Virus record (IMG/VR): IMGVR_UViG_2684622620_000011
Location: 1 to 9,345 of that record
Direction: 5' to 3' (one strand)
Source of the DNA: a virus
Lineage: Duplodnaviria; Heunggongvirae; Uroviricota; Caudoviricetes
Length of the DNA: 9,345 bases
The position numbers and the translations under genes are program-made. This document shows, in pieces, positions 1-6,737 of the stretch. Each line of letters starts with the position of its first letter. Position 1 is the stretch's first letter. Under the pieces are notes generated by a model. The model did not search any database, was not told where the DNA came from, and saw nothing but the letters and a program-made list of their open reading frames with translations.

Positions 1-25
1 TGAACCGCCCCGGGTTTCCTGGAGA
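1..25. repeat. Terminal inverted repeat of the left IS copy (orfB-proximal end)
   Basis: TGAACCGCCCCGGGTTTCCTGGAGA matches the reverse complement of 1286..1310 at about 22 of 25 positions; positions 1-13 and 17-25 are identical. Confidence 0.8.
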
Positions 26-42
26 GTGTTTTATCTGTGAAC

Positions 43-933
43 TCAGGCTGCCAGATCATCGTTTCCGATGGAAGCATAATAAGCTTTTTCTGCTTCTGCC
101 GGAGGAGTATGGCCCAGCCTTCCCAGCAATCGTCGATTGTTATACCAGTCCACCCACGTTAGTGTGGCCAGTTCCACTTCTGCACGGTTTTTCCAGCTCT
201 TACGGTGTATTACCTCCGCTTTGTAAAGACCATTGATGCTCTCAGCCATCGCGTTGTCATACGAGTCGCCTGTACTCCCTGTTGATGCCAGTAATCCGGC
301 TTCTTTTAGTCGCTCCGTATAGGCCAGTGACACATACTGAGAGCCTTTATCGCTGTGATGGATGGTGCCAGACGGACGACGGGCCCACAACGCCTGCTCC
401 AGCGCATCCAGCACGAATGTCGTTTCCATAGACGATGAGACCCGCCACCCCACGATGTATCCGGCAAACACATCAATGATAAACGCCACATAGACGAAGC
501 CCTGCCATGTGCTGACGTAAGTAAAATCAGCCACCCACAGCTGGTCAGGTCGTTCTGCCACGAACTGACGGTTTACGCGGTCGCCTGCGGCAACGGCTTT
601 CCGGCTGATGGTCGTACGGACCTTTTTACCCCGGAGAACACCGGCAAGTCCCATAACCGCCATGAGACGTGCCACTGTACATCTGGCCACCCTGATTCCT
701 TCCCGTAACAACTGACGCCAGACTTTACGCACACCGTACACCTGATGATTTTCATCGTATACGCGCTGTATCTCTCTCTTCAGCCAGTCGTCGTGCTGCG
801 CACGGGCACTGCGTTTATCCGGATGATGTCGCTGTTGCTGACAATGGTAATACGTTGACGGGGCAATATGCAGTTCGCTGCATACCGGTCCGACCCCGTA
901 CTGCTCACGCAGCTTATCCAGCAGTGGCATCAT
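43..933 (-). CDS. IS3-family transposase OrfB (DDE/integrase catalytic domain), 296 aa
   Basis: ATG start overlaps the orfA stop by 4 nt (ATGA). Protein shows integrase-core hallmarks (W..DFTY, HSD.GSQY, ...[10 protein letters not shown]). Identical to the ORF at 8413..9303. Confidence 0.9.
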
Positions 934-1256
934 TTTTTCCAGAGGCGGTCGAACTCCGCCTTCGCAAAATAAGCGGAAGCCTGGCGAAGGATATCGTTAC
1001 TGCGGCGCAGTTCACGATTTTCACGTTCCAGCTCTTTCAGACGCTGACGTTCAGCGCTGGTGAGCCCACCATCACCGCCCCCGGTATCCCGCTCATGCTG
1101 GCGAACCCAGACACGCAGAGTCTCCGGCGTACAGCCAATCTTTGGGGCAATGGAACAAATTGCCGCCCACTGTGAGTCATATTCATCCTGACTTTCCAGA
1201 ACCATACGAATCGCCCGCTGACGGACTTCGGGGGAAAAACGAGTATTTTTAGTCAT
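930..1256 (-). CDS. IS3-family transposase OrfA (HTH and leucine-zipper DNA-binding subunit), 108 aa
   Basis: Starts [22 protein letters not shown]... with a helix-turn-helix region and a heptad Leu repeat ([18 protein letters not shown]). Identical to the ORF at 8090..8416. Confidence 0.9.
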
Positions 1257-1285
1257 CCTGTTTACCTCTTTCTCAGGGAGTTTAG

Positions 1286-1310
1286 TCTCCAGGATTTCCG
1301 GGGCGGTTCA
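1286..1310. repeat. Terminal inverted repeat of the left IS copy (orfA-proximal end)
   Basis: Reverse complement reads TGAACCGCCCCGGAAATCCTGGAGA, an imperfect match to 1..25. Confidence 0.8.
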
Positions 1311-1619
1311 AATTGAAGTAAGTTCATTTTTAGGTGAAGGAGTGATATCTTCGCTTCCAAAGATCATATCTTGGTATTGTGCCCAATTTTGGCGAATTTC
1401 GAAATACATATCAACATCATAATCCTGCCCTCTTAGTTCATCATCTGAAGATATATTCAATGTCTTTTTGAGACCGATGATGTTAAAGATCCACTTCTTA
1501 CCACCTTTAATGAAGTATGCCCCAGTATATGCCTCTTCATCTGGTACAGCCTCATAACCTAAATTTAATGCTAATTGTATCTGTTCTGCTAATGTAAAAG
1601 GCTCTTTCCATCCACTCAT
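1308..1619 (-). CDS. Hypothetical small protein (103 aa as read), probably 3'-truncated by the IS insertion
   Basis: ATG at 1619..1617 with an AGGTAGGT Shine-Dalgarno-like sequence upstream. The in-frame stop TGA is formed by the last 3 nt of the IS terminus (1308..1310), so the native C-terminus is probably missing. AT-rich codon usage like the neighbouring 221-aa gene. No recognisable domain. Confidence 0.55.
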   Translation of the reverse strand: MSGWKEPFTLAEQIQLALNLGYEAVPDEEAYTGAYFIKGGKKWIFNIIGLKKTLNISSDDELRGQDYDVDMYFEIRQNWAQYQDMIFGSEDITPSPKNELTSI

Positions 1620-1707
1620 AGCTTATTACCTACCTGTGAACCTGTTTGCTGCATGAAAAACAATATAATAAAGCGTTATTGAAGACTATGATCCAAGTAA
1701 ATTTAAT

Positions 1708-1730
1708 CAAATACGTTTATAACGTATTTG
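1708..1730. promoter_or_regulatory. Perfect 10-bp inverted repeat with a 3-bp spacer (CAAATACGTT-TAT-AACGTATTTG), candidate operator
   Basis: Arms 1708..1717 and 1721..1730 are exact reverse complements. It lies about 90 nt upstream of the 1619 start codon, in the 320-bp intergenic region between the two AT-rich genes. Confidence 0.35.
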
Positions 1731-1939
1731 CCTAAACAACTTCCAACGTATGATCCGCTTCTCGCTCTCAGCAGACCTTTATCTGCAGGTGCTTGTCTGC
1801 TGTGTTCCAGAAGCAGATATTATTATATAACTCTTTAACCCATGTATGACAAAATATTCTTGGAGCTTATTAAAACTTCATACGTCTAAATCACCTCTTC
1901 ATTAGTGAATCAATAATTGTATAGTTAAAATGTAACACT

Positions 1940-2605
1940 TTATTTTTTATGATTAACTTGCTTTGCTAAAGAGCTATAAATCATATCAACCAAAACATAT
2001 TTTTCGCATTCCCAAGGTTCACTAATAGATGGGTTTACTAAGTCTGGCTTCCCCCCCATTAGTGTATGAACATGCGAATAAATACCTATTCTTTCTGCGA
2101 GCTGCATTATTTTTATTTGATGTTCTGGTGGGAGCATTTTGTTTTTAAACCATGTTGTAAATATATGCTTGGTAAGTTCCTTAGTACAAACAAACCATTC
2201 ACCTTGACGTCTTTCGTTGCTAAATTTTTCATGAAGATAGTTTTCTTTTTCTGAACCACCTGGTTCCAAAGCGTGTAATATTAATTGACCAAATGCACCT
2301 GTCTGCAGGTTAGACAACCTTTTTAGCACATTATTGGAACGCCCTATTTTCACATAAAGTCCCGAGTAAGGGTTATTTTTATCTGAAGAACCGGCCCAAG
2401 TATCAGGCACTTGTAAAATATAATAAATACTACTTACTTTCCCACTCGATACATTATTTGCCCAAATCTGCCATTCTTCCATCCAGCTTTTTGCATCTTC
2501 TCTCGTGTCAAAGGCATGACTTGTATAGTAAAATTCACCAGTATCCAAGAACATATCGAAAACATATTTGCCATTCTCTATAATTCTTAAGTTGTCGGCT
2601 TTCAT
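1940..2605 (-). CDS. T5orf172/MUG113-domain (GIY-YIG superfamily) protein, 221 aa, with N- and C-terminal extensions of unknown function
   Basis: Central motifs IYYIL...GLYVKIGRSNNVLKRLSNLQTG...YLHEKFSNERRQGEWF fit the T5orf172 pattern (G-x-Y-K-I-G, R-x-x-x-L, H-x-x-F...R-x-GEWF). ATG at 2605 with a GAGA-type ribosome-binding site. Gene and flanks are strongly AT-rich compared with the rest of the window. Confidence 0.75.
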   Translation of the reverse strand: MKADNLRIIENGKYVFDMFLDTGEFYYTSHAFDTREDAKSWMEEWQIWANNVSSGKVSSIYYILQVPDTWAGSSDKNNPYSGLYVKIGRSNNVLKRLSNLQTGAFGQLILHALEPGGSEKENYLHEKFSNERRQGEWFVCTKELTKHIFTTWFKNKMLPPEHQIKIMQLAERIGIYSHVHTLMGGKPDLVNPSISEPWECEKYVLVDMIYSSLAKQVNHKK

Positions 2606-2809
2606 GGAAGTTTCTCACAAAGTTACAGGAATATATAAAAACTTTACTACGCTTAGTATATATTACCACCTGATTATGTATTATTTGATTTACACAACTT
2701 ATTGCTAGTAATAACGGTTTTGATGTAATCTTCTCATCCCAAACTAACCTTCAAAATAGATTTAATCTAAATTATATCAAAATATGCTCTCAGTTAAGAT
2801 GGCTTATTT

Positions 2810-3007
2810 TTAATCAGTTAGAGGATCAACCTGATTTTCTCTAATAAGATTTCGTAACGCAGTACGAGCAGCCGCGACTTCTGTCATTCCATTTAGAACC
2901 ACGCTGGAATGCCCTCCTCTAACCCCAAAGACTGTGACCATATCCTCTTCACGGAAGTATTCTGCTTCATACTGAAGGCCATCTTTCTCTACGCGAATAT
3001 ATGACAT
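2810..3007 (-). CDS. Hypothetical small protein, 65 aa
   Basis: ATG at 3007 preceded by GAGG about 6-9 nt upstream. Composition is like the phage backbone, not the AT-rich block. No recognisable motif. Confidence 0.5.
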   Translation of the reverse strand: MSYIRVEKDGLQYEAEYFREEDMVTVFGVRGGHSSVVLNGMTEVAAARTALRNLIRENQVDPLTD

Positions 3008-3633
3008 AACAACCTCATTTTATTATCTTTTGTTTGAATGATATATCCACAAAATAATTTAAGCAATCTCGCCCAAGACGGTACGCCAAGCTTGCCTTGT
3101 AAGTATACTGTAAATATTCCGATAAAACTAATCATTCGCTTTTAGCGCATGTCCAAAAAATGGTTCAGGTATCCTATCGTGCCAATATTCGCTCCTCACT
3201 CATAGCGGCTTTCAGGCAAGTTAACTAGTCCGCTCGGTGCCATATAGAGCCATGGTTATTAACAGCAGGGAATAATTCCACACTGAAATTAAATGTCTAC
3301 CTTTTACAGTAGAAATAGTTCCTCCAGGACACTATCCATTGCCGGGCACAATCACTCGGGGTATAACGATATAAAATATGTTCATGATAGTGCAGGTTCG
3401 TATATTAAGTTCAGCAGCGAAAACATGCCTTACAGGTTTCCGGTTTTGGGAGCGTCGTTACAGGATCCTGTGCATACCGTTCCCATCTGTTGAATTAAAG
3501 GTTTCACAGCCTTTGCCGATATCACCTTTTACCTTGCCTGTGATGCGTTCAGTGCTCAGCGTTGTTTACTGTAGCTCTCGGAACTGATTACAGACCGCGT
3601 CTTAAAAACCAATCCTTACTCTAAAGGGAATTC

Positions 3634-4557
3634 ATGAGATTAAAATACTCAGTACTCTTACTCGCCATTGCCCTTACAGGCTGTGATAACAAAAAAGATG
3701 AGATCGGTTGTTCTTCGGAAATGACCCAATCAGCTCTCATGGATTTATTAAAAAAATCTGCTTATGAAGGACTCTCTGAACAGGTCGATAAATACCCTGA
3801 TGTCACTAATCAGACCAAACGAAGCACACTGGACAAGATCAAACTAGCCGTCTCTGAAATCTCCACAACATCAAGTGACACGGGCAGCACAATGAAAACT
3901 TGTGAAGGGACCGTGACGATGACTCTACCTGCGAACGAGTACATCCAGCTTTCTGATGCTTACCGAAAGAATTTTAATCGTAATCTCGATAAGCAAATGG
4001 AAAATCTGTTTTTGGAGAACAACGCAAACGCCTTTTCAAAACGTATCACCTACACCGTGCAGGCGACCGACGATCAGAAAAACGTTTTTGTAAAAACCTC
4101 TTCTGATAATCCGATATCAGTGGGCGCCGCTTTACTGACATCGCTTTCCATTATCAACCCGATCGTTGAGCAGCAGAAAATCCAGCAGGCTAAGGATGCC
4201 CAACAGAGTCAAATTGAAGCGGAACAACAGGTGCAACTCAGGGCACAGGAACAGGCCAGGTATGAGGCGGAGAAGCAAATAGAGAGGCAGGCACAACTTC
4301 AGCCGCAAAAAGCTGAAAGCCTTGATCAGTCCCGAATGGCATTTGCGAATGCTGACTCTGATTTGAATACAGTCTGGGGCAGGTTAACGCCGGCGAAGAA
4401 AAAAGAGTTGCTGCCTTCTCAGCGTCAGTGGATCAAAACTAAGGATGCTATGTGCGGTAAAGTTTCAATGCAGGGAACAGATGCTGAAGTCAAGAAAATG
4501 GTCGACTGCCAGACGCAAATGACCCTTTCAAGAATCGCTTTCCTCAGAAACCAATAA
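3634..4557 (+). CDS. Lipoprotein with a Q-rich coiled-coil middle and a C-terminal DUF1311/LprI-like domain, 307 aa
   Basis: N-terminus MRLKYSVLLLAIALTGC has a signal peptide and lipobox (LTG-C). C-terminus LLPSQRQWIKTKDAMC...VDCQTQMTLSRIAFL matches the DUF1311 signature (Q-x-x-W-x-x-x-R-D-x-x-C ... C ... T-x-x-R). AAGGGA ribosome-binding site 7-8 nt upstream of the ATG. The only long plus-strand gene in the insert. Confidence 0.8.
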   Translation: MRLKYSVLLLAIALTGCDNKKDEIGCSSEMTQSALMDLLKKSAYEGLSEQVDKYPDVTNQTKRSTLDKIKLAVSEISTTSSDTGSTMKTCEGTVTMTLPANEYIQLSDAYRKNFNRNLDKQMENLFLENNANAFSKRITYTVQATDDQKNVFVKTSSDNPISVGAALLTSLSIINPIVEQQKIQQAKDAQQSQIEAEQQVQLRAQEQARYEAEKQIERQAQLQPQKAESLDQSRMAFANADSDLNTVWGRLTPAKKKELLPSQRQWIKTKDAMCGKVSMQGTDAEVKKMVDCQTQMTLSRIAFLRNQ

Positions 4558-4571
4558 CTGAAGTTTCCTTC

Positions 4572-4605
4572 AAGCTGGCGCCTGGTGTTAACCTGGTGCC
4601 AGCTT
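4572..4605. terminator. Candidate hairpin between the convergent lipoprotein and anti-repressor genes
   Basis: AAGCTGGCGCC...GGTGCCAGCTT forms an 11-bp stem (one G.U pair) with a 12-nt loop containing GTTAAC. No clear U-tract on either strand, so the terminator call is weak. Confidence 0.3.
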
Positions 4606-4734
4606 AGTCATCAAGTACATACGTAACAGTTTTACATGGGCGGTACTTTGACAGAGTATTCGGCCTCGTGCTGGTTGTGACTAAATACCTTTTTAAGCGC
4701 AAATAGAGTATAACCGCGCCAAACATTCAACCTG

Positions 4735-5523
4735 TCAAAATGCTGAATCAGCAACGGATACAACCGACTTTTTCCCCATTACCATCAATTTATCCAGCGT
4801 CATACTTCGCAGGTTGTCGCTGTGGATCACCAGATACCCTGCCCGCTCAGCGATCTCTTTGAAAGCGTCAAACGTCATCAGATGTTCGCCTTTGGCAACA
4901 TGGCGCATCCTGGTCACTTTTCCATTTTTGATAGTGGTGATAAAAGAAAAATCTGGAATGGTTGGCTGATTTTCATCGAGTAGCAGGCAGTGGATGTATT
5001 CAATCGCCTCTAACATTTGCGTCTGTGACAGTTGTTCTATGTGAGAGACGGCGAAGCGTTGATGAATCATGGTGTAGGCATCGGGATACATCATGCCTTT
5101 CTTACCGACCAGCATATTAACGGCATCACGTAAGGGAGTACGGTCATCGGTAGTTGTACTCCGCCTCTCTGGACGCTGTCTAAAATAACAATCTTCCAGC
5201 TTTTCGAAAACTTCCCAGGCCTGTTCTGTTTCCAGCATTTTGGCATGGCGAGCTGCGCCGCGTTCTGTCCAGAGAATGAGGGATCGGGTATGTTTAGCAA
5301 CTGACTGACTATCTGTCAGTCTGTTTTTGAAGTCGCGTAATTCATTACCTTCCAGCTTAAAAAAATGCTTTCCTACGACAAATCTGGCGATGTTGCGCTT
5401 GAAGTTTTGCTGGATACCATTTACTTCCGTGCCATACAAACTGGCAAGCAATTCAGTAGTGATGACGGGAAGTTGGTTATGATGTAGCGGAGAAAGGGAT
5501 TCCGCAGATATTTGGATTGTCAT
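4735..5523 (-). CDS. Phage anti-repressor-like regulatory protein (ORF6N/KilA-type N-terminal domain), about 262 aa
   Basis: The N-terminal region (...ELLASLYGTEVNGIQQNFKRNIARFVVGKHFFKLEGNELRDF...WTERGAARHAKML...) resembles ORF6N-type anti-repressor domains. Start chosen at ATG 5523 (MTIQ...), which has GTGAGG 8 nt upstream. The ORF track extends the frame to 5571, but that start is a TTG; another ATG at 5553 has poorer spacing. Confidence 0.65.
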   Translation of the reverse strand: MTIQISAESLSPLHHNQLPVITTELLASLYGTEVNGIQQNFKRNIARFVVGKHFFKLEGNELRDFKNRLTDSQSVAKHTRSLILWTERGAARHAKMLETEQAWEVFEKLEDCYFRQRPERRSTTTDDRTPLRDAVNMLVGKKGMMYPDAYTMIHQRFAVSHIEQLSQTQMLEAIEYIHCLLLDENQPTIPDFSFITTIKNGKVTRMRHVAKGEHLMTFDAFKEIAERAGYLVIHSDNLRSMTLDKLMVMGKKSVVSVADSAF

Positions 5524-5683
5524 CGCAGTGGCCTCACTTAGTGTTTTTTTCATCACCACCAGCGACGCCAATCATCTGGTGGTGAACTGTGCAGGGTTGG
5601 CGTAACCGGCTAAGTGAACCCGGCGCTTCCGCAGAAGCCCCCACACAGCCCACCATAATGCGAATGTGGCCGTGCCTAACACA

Positions 5684-5707
5684 TAAAAAAACCGCTAACG
5701 CGGCTAT
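5684..5707 (-). terminator. Candidate rho-independent terminator (minus strand) downstream of the small-gene operon
   Basis: Minus strand reads AGCCGCGTTAGCGG followed by TTTTTTT. The stem is short (4 G-C pairs plus possible G.U/A-U) with a 4-nt loop and a T7 tract, about 100 nt after the stop of the 5796..6017 ORF. Confidence 0.3.
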
Positions 5708-5795
5708 GCGTCACTTAGATATCCGGGACGCCAATCCCGGCAACCGATTTTGCGGCTGCGCGGAAACTATAGCCCCGGGCTTTTTCTAAGTCAAT

Positions 5796-6017
5796 TCAAT
5801 CAACTTCAAACCTCCGGTGTTCACATTCCATACACTCAACGGGAACATCATCGCGATGCAAGTCCACATATCCGACCCGCTTATACAACTCAATAATGTC
5901 CGGTAACGTGACCAGATGTTTTTCCGGTTCCAACACCTCAGCCCTGGTTACTTTGTAATCTGAAATATAGAGCACTATCCGCCCGTTCCGTGGTAACTCC
6001 AGTTTATCGCCAAACAT
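5796..6017 (-). CDS. Hypothetical small phage protein, 73 aa
   Basis: ATG at 6017 with GGAGGGAAAGGA Shine-Dalgarno sequence immediately upstream. Last gene of the minus-strand operon. No recognisable domain; C-terminus has a CxxC (CMEC) pair. Confidence 0.6.
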   Translation of the reverse strand: MFGDKLELPRNGRIVLYISDYKVTRAEVLEPEKHLVTLPDIIELYKRVGYVDLHRDDVPVECMECEHRRFEVD

Positions 6018-6091
6018 GTCCTTTCCCTCCGGGAAACCAATGATATTGACGATATTACACCCACAAAGATTCGTTTTACGTCACTCCGCAA

Positions 6092-6208
6092 TCACCATAC
6101 ATACGTACCAATCCGTACATTCCCACCACAAAAATGGCATTCGGCGGGCACTGGTAATGGATTTTTAACGCGTGCTATTGCCTTGCGACGTATTTTCAAT
6201 TCACTCAT
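6092..6208 (-). CDS. Possible unannotated small ORF, 38 aa (MSELKIRRKAIARVKNPLPVPAECHFCGGNVRIGTYVW)
   Basis: ATG at 6208..6206 overlaps the stop of the upstream ORF (ATGA) and is preceded by GGGAGG 5 nt upstream. Below the 60-aa cutoff of the ORF track. Contains one CxxC pair. Translated by hand. Confidence 0.35.
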   Translation of the reverse strand: MSELKIRRKAIARVKNPLPVPAECHFCGGNVRIGTYVW

Positions 6209-6429
6209 ACAGCCTCCCTGCTCTCAAACGGGCGAATATTGGTTGGTTCTCCACACGGAATGGCCCAACCCAGCCAGGTAAATATTTTCAGATCACACAT
6301 CGCGTCATACCGTTCGCCCGGATTCACATCCACCATGCTGCAGGCAATTTCATATTGTTCACCATTATCAGTCAGTGCGATCTGGTCATTAATAAACCGG
6401 GGCACAAATGCAAGAAAAAGCTCTTTCAT
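6205..6429 (-). CDS. Hypothetical small phage protein, 74 aa
   Basis: ATG at 6429 with GGAGGA Shine-Dalgarno sequence; ATGA overlap with the upstream gene, consistent with translational coupling. Confidence 0.6.
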   Translation of the reverse strand: MKELFLAFVPRFINDQIALTDNGEQYEIACSMVDVNPGERYDAMCDLKIFTWLGWAIPCGEPTNIRPFESREAV

Positions 6430-6737
6430 GAAATCCTCCGCTCAAAATAAACAAACTGATTCACCGCTCCGATCGGCATTTCGAGTTTTTCCGCGATATC
6501 CTGGCGATTAATACCCGACTGATGTAATTCCCTTGCCAGCTCGACATCTTCCTGTAGGTATTTCGCTGACTGGTGATAATTACCCCGCAGATACATACAG
6601 ATTTTCAGCTCGCGCGCTTTTGTGCGTACCGACGCAGCGGTTCTGCCAATAAGCTGCCCTATACTTTCAACTGTCATGCTGCCTGCACATTGTTTGATGA
6701 TTACGACTTCCGCACGCACCCACCGTTTGTATTTCAT
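6426..6737 (-). CDS. Hypothetical phage protein, 103 aa, possibly DNA-binding (two helix-turn-helix-like segments)
   Basis: ATG at 6737 with GGAG upstream; ATGA overlap with the upstream gene. Segments SIGQLIGRTAASVRTKAREL and NRQDIAEKLEMPIGAVNQFV look HTH-like by eye only. Confidence 0.55.
   Translation of the reverse strand: MKYKRWVRAEVVIIKQCAGSMTVESIGQLIGRTAASVRTKARELKICMYLRGNYHQSAKYLQEDVELARELHQSGINRQDIAEKLEMPIGAVNQFVYFERRIS

Follow-up and report, generated by a model that had tools for sequence, protein, structure and literature searches.

The subject of this report is a lipoprotein gene at positions 3634-4557 (plus strand) of a 9,345-nucleotide stretch of Caudoviricetes DNA, IMG/VR record IMGVR_UViG_2684622620_000011, positions 1 to 9,345, hereafter called the window. 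From sequence and profile comparisons we conclude that its product is a divergent, spacer-extended and, by prediction, lipidated member of the two-domain family typified by the Salmonella protein ScwA, which is its closest characterised homolog, and that it stands outside the proven families of lysozyme inhibitors. RefSeq labels the gene 'lysozyme inhibitor LprI family protein', a name that probably over-interprets the C-terminal DUF1311 domain and misleads. The gene travels in a mobile cassette of about 1.2 kb that is found both in prophages and in bacterial chromosomes, and we tentatively suggest that the protein acts on the enzymes that cleave the glycan strands of peptidoglycan. The gene had already been annotated in RefSeq and listed in PHROGs as phrog_5094, and its product is a true member of PF07007.

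Homology to ScwA and the lysozyme-inhibitor label

The scwA locus (L020) was recovered from a metagenome contig by means of a published 24-nucleotide quantitative PCR primer, and its identity was verified by four primer-encoded peptides. BLASTP aligned residues 11-304 of the window protein with residues 15-271 of ScwA (E = 5e-11, 21% identity), and hhalign comparison of a 121-sequence family profile with ScwA gave a probability of 98.7% and E = 4e-16 over 254 columns. The four cysteines C26, C90, C274 and C292 align with C30, C100, C237 and C259 of ScwA. ScwA (SL1344_0490) is a periplasmic protein of 275 residues with four conserved cysteines, two disulfides and a C-terminal LprI domain; it increases the amount of the lytic transglycosylase MltD and has an influence on Slt, AmiC, NlpC, PBP4 and AmpH, its prolonged overproduction leads to cell lysis, and its loss makes Salmonella hypervirulent in a mouse typhoid model (PMC7933661). 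Its production is mainly a trait of stationary phase. The likeness of the two proteins thus consists of homology over both domains, the same order of an N-terminal domain followed by LprI/DUF1311, cysteines in register, export to the periplasm, a G+C content under the genome average and horizontal acquisition. They also differ in several respects. ScwA is soluble and has neither a lipobox nor the Q-rich spacer, in place of which the alignment has a 38-residue gap, whereas the window protein is predicted to be lipid-anchored and is spacer-extended; ScwA reads QLADN where the family of the window protein has a near-invariant Q-P/A-T-D-D motif; and scwA adjoins copA on the chromosome and does not lie in a prophage.

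The PF07007 family takes its name from LprI of M. tuberculosis (Rv1541c), which resembles the window protein in being a lipoprotein with a PF07007/DUF1311 domain. The two differ in what accompanies that domain. By its published description LprI combines DUF1311 with an MliC domain, which by itself was shown to confer resistance to lysozyme, and lysozyme inhibition by PF07007 itself is without experimental evidence (PMC7933661); in the window protein, a C-terminal DUF1311 is combined instead with an NTF2-like domain. No MliC, Ivy or PliG domain was found in the window protein by a Pfam scan at E <= 1, which returned LprI and two sub-threshold noise matches. Furthermore, deletion of scwA leaves lysozyme sensitivity unchanged, with or without ethylenediaminetetraacetic acid (EDTA) (PMC7933661). 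The preliminary description of this DNA had read DUF1311 as the signature of a lysozyme inhibitor; the missing MliC domain, the NTF2/cystatin-like nature of the N-terminal domain and the behaviour of the scwA mutant all argue against that step. The domain may still be connected with protection against muramidase-type enzymes in a broader sense, such as effectors of type VI secretion systems (T6SS) or phage lysins.

Architecture and predicted sorting of the protein

The layout of the protein was derived from an alignment of 38 homologs and from AlphaFold models (full length, mean predicted local distance difference test score, pLDDT, 85.5; N-terminal domain, pLDDT 92.8 and predicted template modelling score, pTM, 0.84). 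Its N-terminus, MRLKYSVLLLAIALTG followed by C17, is encoded at 3634-3684 on the plus strand and has the features of a lipoprotein signal: MRLK, a hydrophobic core and a lipobox with LTG before Cys17 (3682-3684), after which come Asp18 and Asn19. Cys17 is invariant in the 38-homolog alignment and nearly invariant in a broader family alignment, and a lipobox is present in 107 of 121 distant family representatives. These observations agree with the lipoprotein assignment of the preliminary description, and we predict that the protein is exported and lipid-modified at Cys17.

By the Lol-avoidance rule of E. coli, an Asp at position +2 that is followed by Asp, Glu, Gln or Asn leads to retention in the inner membrane. 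C17-D18-N19 has this pattern, so that the lipoprotein is predicted to stay in the inner membrane, and not in the outer membrane, which the preliminary description had named as a possible location. Among the 38 close family members the +2/+3 residues are DN in 21, DD in 4, DE in 2, DK in 1, ND in 4 and GE in 6; Asp+2 therefore occurs in 28 of them, and Gly+2 is the residue of Proteus and Morganella. In the wider family the sorting residue varies among Asp, Gly, Asn and Ser.

A tether of about 8 residues links Cys17 to the N-terminal domain (residues 26-157; 3709-4104, plus strand), which contains the invariant Cys26 and Cys90 and the conserved motif Q143-x-T-D-D147, matches no Pfam family and is predicted to fold as an NTF2/cystatin-like alpha+beta roll. 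An exhaustive HMMER scan with this domain yielded a family of 130 representative clusters, whose proteins are about 300 residues long and in which C26, T78, D82, S85, C90 and Q143-P-T-D-D147 are near-invariant; the family appears to be uncatalogued. The domain is paired with PF07007 in at least 56 of 121 representatives, and in a few with SH3_3, TPR, YARHG or TonB_C instead.

The N-terminal domain is followed in the AlphaFold2 model by a long Q-rich helix (residues 160-221; 4111-4296, plus strand) that may serve as a spacer and would measure about 9 nm if fully helical. The corresponding linker is 55-93 residues long and 41% Q in close homologs, and residues 177-229 of the window protein are 32% Q and 15% E. 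The richness in Q and E that had been pointed out in the preliminary description is therefore real, and the coiled coil that went with it is not borne out: the region is modelled as a single helix with no heptad register, and a canonical coiled coil was dismissed because at most 3/9 hydrophobic residues fall in a/d positions whichever register is chosen.

The DUF1311/LprI domain, with conserved Cys274 and Cys292, spans residues 225-304 (4306-4545, plus strand). A Pfam search, which had been named earlier as the check on this assignment, bears it out with 33.6 bits against a gathering cutoff of 22 (E = 5.4e-8; profile positions 10-106 of 106). In the predicted structure residues 230-305 form a three-helix bundle like that of a DUF1311 crystal structure, in which Cys274 and Cys292 make up an invariant pair; by sequence, neither the protein nor the family profile retrieved anything other than noise from the PDB. 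C26 and C90 are retained in no less than 90% of a family whose members do not all match DUF1311, and because they persist in this way, intradomain pairing (C26-C90 and C274-C292) would be the simplest arrangement of the disulfides. This differs from the pairing proposed for ScwA, C30-C237 and C100-C259.

The gene, its signals and its conservation

The gene encodes 307 residues from an ATG start (the coordinates 3634-4557 include the stop codon), and its full-length homologs across Enterobacterales, together with ratios of nonsynonymous to synonymous substitution (dN/dS) of 0.11-0.21, indicate that it is real, far beyond chance. The individual ratios are 0.15 against the Citrobacter copy, 0.21 against the Yersinia copy and 0.11 against the Enterobacter copy, and the values within the N-terminal and DUF1311 domains range from 0.08 to 0.24; in the comparison with Proteus synonymous sites are saturated, hence no ratio is given. 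A Shine-Dalgarno-like AAGGGA (3624-3629, plus strand) lies 4 nucleotides before the ATG and is kept in the Citrobacter, Yersinia and Enterobacter copies, so that the gene carries its own ribosome-binding site in every copy of the cassette, as first described. It is also, as first described, the sole substantial gene on its strand, being the only plus-strand open reading frame (ORF) of at least 100 residues within 1311-8035; beyond that segment, an insertion sequence at the right end of the window (8036-9345) has plus-strand transposase ORFs too.

The only PHROG match, a strong one, is phrog_5094, to which no function is assigned and whose alignment begins at Met36. For the members of phrog_5094 an internal ATG seems to have been taken as the start, at the cost of signal peptide and lipobox; we favour the upstream start, since residues 1-35, the lipobox included, are conserved in homologs down to Proteus. 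The match presumably reflects prophage-derived members.

Upstream of the gene, a conserved non-coding region (3403-3633, plus strand) is kept in all four contexts in which the cassette was found and is presumed to be regulatory. Within these roughly 230 bp, neither a consensus scan nor a relaxed scan for conserved hexamers gave a sigma-70 match above 7/12. A sigma-E-like GGAACT...TCTTA motif, picked by eye, was dismissed on account of its 13-nucleotide spacer (about 16 is expected), and small upstream ORFs (3293-3587 in the window, and minus-strand ones in Citrobacter and Yersinia) were dismissed as genes on account of their lack of conservation. Downstream, where the cassette has its right end and the two convergent genes meet, there is a strong stem-loop (4573-4604). 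Its folding energy is -28.2 kcal/mol on the plus strand (z -4.9) and -24.3 kcal/mol on the minus strand (z -3.0); it is terminator-like except for the absence of a U-tract, and a terminator scan did not pick it up.

Two E. coli alleles depart from the usual form. Allele P0002 has an 8-residue tandem duplication, AEQQVQLR, in the Q-rich spacer, and allele P0071, the cluster of which holds 166 sequences, stops at residue 259 with most of DUF1311 gone.

The gene is in addition a target of CRISPR (clustered regularly interspaced short palindromic repeats) systems. Three protospacers, each matched over 32/32 positions by an E. coli type I-E spacer, lie at 3634-3665 (minus strand, protospacer-adjacent motif, PAM, ATG), 4107-4138 (minus strand, PAM ATG) and 4220-4251 (plus strand, PAM AAG). 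Among the 5,426 complete genomes of E. coli, about 148 match the gene solely through their type I-E arrays, by these three distinct spacers with canonical PAMs, the commonest of which is directed at the signal peptide, start codon included. No more than 6 genomes match in two places, which indicates that spacer and gene rarely occur together.

A mobile cassette in prophages and chromosomes

The upstream region, the lipoprotein gene and the downstream hairpin together form a mobile cassette of about 1.2 kb (3403-4606, plus strand), delimited by blastn. In every foreign locus homology starts at 3403-3415 and ends at 4563-4606, and the flanks are unrelated; the boundaries 3403-4606 are common to four unrelated genomic contexts. 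Nucleotide identity to the cassette is 87% in the Citrobacter chromosome, 89% in the Yersinia rohdei chromosome and 82% in Enterobacter prophages. Within the prophage of the window, the cassette occupies a variable region between replication/antirepressor genes and the Q antiterminator and runs against the phage operons. The preliminary description had taken the gene for an oppositely oriented, moron-like insert, and sharp boundaries that are shared with non-phage copies, together with changing neighbours, support its classification as a moron-like accessory unit. Base composition is not part of this case. The gene had been held to be lower in G+C than the phage genes around it, which is incorrect: at 44.9% it lies between its left flank (35.9%) and right flank (49.1%), and G+C was dismissed as a sign of foreign origin since the phage DNA without the cassette has 44.1%. 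The lambdoid morons Bor and Cor and T5 Llp are small independent lipoprotein genes that benefit the lysogen and are regulated or oriented apart from the lytic operons, and the window gene is like them in being an independent, separately oriented lipoprotein gene of a prophage. It differs from them in that there is no sequence or profile similarity, and in that its product is much larger, has two domains, is predicted to be in the inner membrane and is chromosomal in other genera.

In E. coli the gene is present in 439 of the 5,426 complete genomes, always chromosomal and in lambdoid prophages, and each of the full-length matches sampled among these genomes is unbroken and falls under a coding sequence annotated as LprI-family. 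One of the carrier prophages is in sequence type 131 (ST131), and in the prophages examined the side towards the ORF6N gene is constant and the other side variable. In Enterobacter prophages the cassette is found in the slot known from E. coli, with O/P on one side and DinI-DUF1367-RusA-Q on the other, and on the opposite strand. The Citrobacter gene has a fec-like transport operon on one side and shiA/amn-type genes on the other, with no phage genes near; one allele accounts for 1,006 indexed blocks of the collection, and its neighbourhood is the same in the four genomes shown. The Proteus homolog (45% protein identity) is found among housekeeping genes, again with no phage genes near, and the Yersinia rohdei copy is chromosomal and in a non-phage site. 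The neighbourhoods of distant family members are mobile or accessory contexts without a recurrent partner gene; one such member, P0124 (about 30% identity, 356 residues, with an LprI domain; L016-L018), is found on an island with an integrase, next to a TerD/VWA/TerY-PP2C-kinase cluster. No homologs were found in 50,697 deposited phage genomes by megablast and tblastn, and Foldseek gave no match at E <= 1e-3 in a viral structure library.

Extra flanking sequence is common to the Citrobacter and Yersinia copies and absent in the phage copy, and for this reason the cassette was probably captured from a bacterial chromosome, which is the direction that we infer. In the Citrobacter loci L002-L005 the copy is just upstream of genes for a 438-residue major facilitator superfamily sugar transporter and a 484-residue AMP nucleosidase-type protein, which we take to be shiA- and amn-like, and in E. 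coli APEC20/16 (L001) the prophage that bears the cassette is inserted at tRNA-Ser about 10 kb from shiA. The proximity to shiA in both may be a coincidence or a hint at gene capture.

Proposed function and alternatives

The reading that we favour, tentatively, is that of a periplasmic protein, tethered to the membrane, which would bind or regulate the glycosidases that act on peptidoglycan; we put forward the mechanism from its relatives, and hold it to be credible while thinking it quite capable of being wrong. The self-contained cassette, 3403-4606, rides in a lambdoid prophage, where it would be transcribed against the phage operons. Its product would be exported, lipidated at Cys17 and held in the outer leaflet of the inner membrane, where it would present a disulfide-stabilised NTF2-like domain near the membrane, and the Q-rich helix of about 60 residues (some 9 nm long, were it fully helical) would project the disulfide-stabilised DUF1311 bundle toward the wall layer. 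There the protein might bind lytic transglycosylases or lysozyme-type enzymes and shift their stability or activity, and the lysogen would gain an altered cell-wall turnover or tolerance. The sorting residue of the anchor and the length of the spacer vary in the family, as would suit a protein that reaches the wall layer from either membrane and whose target would lie between the two, and the chromosomal, non-phage copies in Citrobacter and Proteus suggest a general envelope role that is not specific to phages.

An interaction with peptidoglycan glycosidases is suggested because it is the thread shared by the biology of ScwA, as described above, and the T6SS immunity partners that contain DUF1311. 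The DUF1311 fold of the window protein resembles TsiV3 by structural alignment (9% identity), and V. cholerae TsiV3 (TsiV3/TsaB, PDB 4NSR/4NOO) neutralises the peptidoglycan hydrolase VgrG3. Etsi4 of enterohaemorrhagic E. coli rescues cells from the toxicity of periplasmic Etse4 (PMC12981562), Pantoea LprI-domain genes lie downstream of lysozyme-like T6SS effectors (PMC9796082), and the pair of Pse15 (pesticin) and Psi15 (LprI) confers a T6SS-dependent advantage (bioRxiv 10.64898/2026.08.01.741415).

Several points weigh against the proposal. With 21% identity, and with neither the anchor nor the spacer nor the motif in ScwA, the function of the window protein may differ from that of its homolog, and the link between ScwA and MltD is an effect on protein levels as opposed to demonstrated binding (PMC7933661). 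The truncated P0071 allele is fairly common, which implies that the gene is dispensable in some strains. Finally, as noted above, the upstream scans found no promoter and the hairpin has no U-tract, so that expression in the lysogen is assumed.

The main rival to a regulator of glycosidases is orphan immunity, in which the lipoprotein would neutralise muramidase-type (lysozyme-like or pesticin-like) toxins injected by the T6SS of other cells. Etsi4, the Pantoea proteins and Psi15 illustrate that DUF1311/LprI proteins are cognate or orphan partners of effectors that target peptidoglycan, and the horizontal mobility of the cassette, its accessory contexts and the predicted periplasm-facing topology would all suit such a role. 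TsiV3, Etsi4 and Psi15 are, however, encoded beside their own effectors, whereas the window protein has no adjacent effector: no T6SS gene or effector was found within 6-20 kb in the window, L001-L012 and L016-L019. T6SS immunity proteins are usually small and single-domain, whereas the window protein has a spacer and an additional N-terminal domain that is the more strongly conserved of its two domains. Orphan immunity genes are, moreover, usually strain-variable, and this one looks like a stable chromosomal gene in Citrobacter and has housekeeping surroundings in Proteus. Taken together, we consider orphan immunity possible but unlikely. A further DUF1311 protein, PP0307 of Pseudomonas putida (PDB 3gi7), is a stand-alone secreted protein of 98 residues, a single domain with no assigned function, and differs from the window protein in having no lipid anchor, N-terminal domain or spacer.

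A wider version of the same idea is a general anti-muramidase shield, in which a tethered two-domain lipoprotein of an undescribed family (an NTF2-like domain with Q-x-T-D-D, plus DUF1311) would neutralise exogenous T6SS muramidases and possibly phage tail lysins, and would pass, as a module of 1.2 kb, from one chromosome or prophage of Enterobacterales to another. We think this rather unlikely; were it true, the prophage would give both interbacterial and anti-phage protection through a gene that the CRISPR-Cas systems of E. coli have repeatedly sampled.

An LprI-type inhibitor of host c-type lysozyme, guarding the wall of the lysogen in animals, is what the Pfam and PGAP name 'lysozyme inhibitor LprI' would lead one to expect, and the protein is a predicted lipoprotein, as are MliC and M. 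tuberculosis LprI. Lysozyme inhibitors are indeed carried by prophages, since an Enterobacter prophage with a homologous cassette also encodes a bona fide Ivy-family (PF08816) inhibitor (L010, 5178-5591, minus strand), between antiterminator and terminase genes. Against this stand the evidence set out above on the MliC domain of LprI, on the domain content of the window protein and on the scwA mutant, and also the predicted inner-membrane anchor, which would place the protein behind the wall and not in front of it. The protein is thus probably not a classical inhibitor of animal lysozyme of the MliC or Ivy type, and we regard a role against host lysozyme as improbable.

Superinfection exclusion, by inhibition of a phage tail lysin or of DNA entry at the inner membrane, is in our judgement just as doubtful. 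Position and orientation are those typical, in lambdoid prophages, of genes for lysogenic conversion or exclusion, an inner-membrane, periplasm-facing topology is predicted, DUF1311 is tied to the antagonism of muramidases, and the gene adjoins a variable accessory-gene hotspot; T4 Spackle, for instance, inhibits the tail lysin gp5. On the other side, the PADLOC defence models gave 0 families at E <= 1 for the window protein, its sole PHROG has no assigned function, the phage genomes and viral structure library searched contained no homolog, and the same gene is chromosomal and non-phage in Citrobacter, Proteus and Yersinia.

That the cassette is a mere hitch-hiker, a captured chromosomal fragment in decay and functionless in the prophage, would fit the frequency of allele P0071, the lack of a recognisable promoter and the state of the window prophage, itself a remnant cut by IS1203, but is hardly credible given the low dN/dS of both domains across prophage and chromosomal copies, the single-piece coding sequences sampled in E. 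coli and the conservation of lipobox, four cysteines and ribosome-binding site.

Prophage setting

The window consists of two inverted, full-length insertion sequences of the IS1203/IS629 type (1-1310 and 8036-9345), 100% identical to each other, around 6,725 bp of prophage DNA (1311-8035), and as such is a composite-transposon-like unit. Both copies contain the ALIL frameshifting pseudoknot (Rfam), and at the junctions they truncate two genes, that of a helicase at 7421-8035 and an ORF at 1308-1619. None of the 5,426 complete genomes of E. coli has the whole IS-bracketed arrangement. The interior is 99.96-100% identical to the lambdoid prophage that is inserted beside mtfA in E. coli APEC20/16, where the segment, with the prophage intact, is bordered by replicative helicase/nin-like genes on one side and by the DUF1367-DUF1364-Q antiterminator-lysis genes on the other.

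Convergent with the lipoprotein gene, as had been noted in the preliminary description, is an antirepressor module on the minus strand (4735-5772; Pfam and Rfam). It comprises the gene for an ORF6N-domain protein (4735-5571; Pfam ORF6N, 9.2e-22) and, directly upstream of it, C4 antisense RNA (5575-5660), isrK (5685-5759) and the c4 a1/b1 target element (5720-5772), all three on the minus strand and above the Rfam gathering score. The ORF6N gene with C4, isrK and a1/b1 is an antirepressor module of the P1/P7 immunity-I (immI) type in a lambdoid prophage, and this layout justifies calling the ORF6N gene an antirepressor. The ORF6N protein also matches the PADLOC candidate defence family PDC-S05 at 1e-9.

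The region at 1310-3000 is very AT-rich (about 36% G+C) and holds a T5orf172/MUG113 (GIY-YIG-like) gene (1940-2605, minus strand) and two small ORFs. Related prophages, that of ST131 included, carry other genes at this position, such as ImmA/IrrE and hypotheticals, and the differing content points to a variable accessory hotspot. An imperfect palindromic element of about 50-64 bp, CAGCAGAC...GTCTGCTG, lies in this region at 1754-1817. The same element flanks the lipoprotein cassette on both sides in Yersinia rohdei (locus L007, 7452-7515 and 9387-9436), where the left copy adjoins a truncated catalase gene; it may be a small mobile or repetitive extragenic palindromic (REP)-like repeat.

Significance

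About 8% of complete E. coli genomes, those of pandemic ST131 included, carry this gene under a RefSeq name that claims too much, and its product is more aptly regarded as a lipid-anchored protein related to ScwA, which regulates peptidoglycan hydrolases. The analysis also defines an uncatalogued periplasmic N-terminal domain family of about 130 clusters and gives the cassette precise boundaries. What emerges is a common prophage accessory gene with a probably misleading annotation and a testable link to the control of cell-wall hydrolases; none of it is categorically new. Should the prophage copy likewise adjust lytic transglycosylases, or stop muramidases that arrive from outside, it would count as a factor of lysogenic conversion that works through the turnover of the cell wall, and such a factor could affect the release of immunostimulatory muropeptides, the robustness of the envelope or competition between bacteria.

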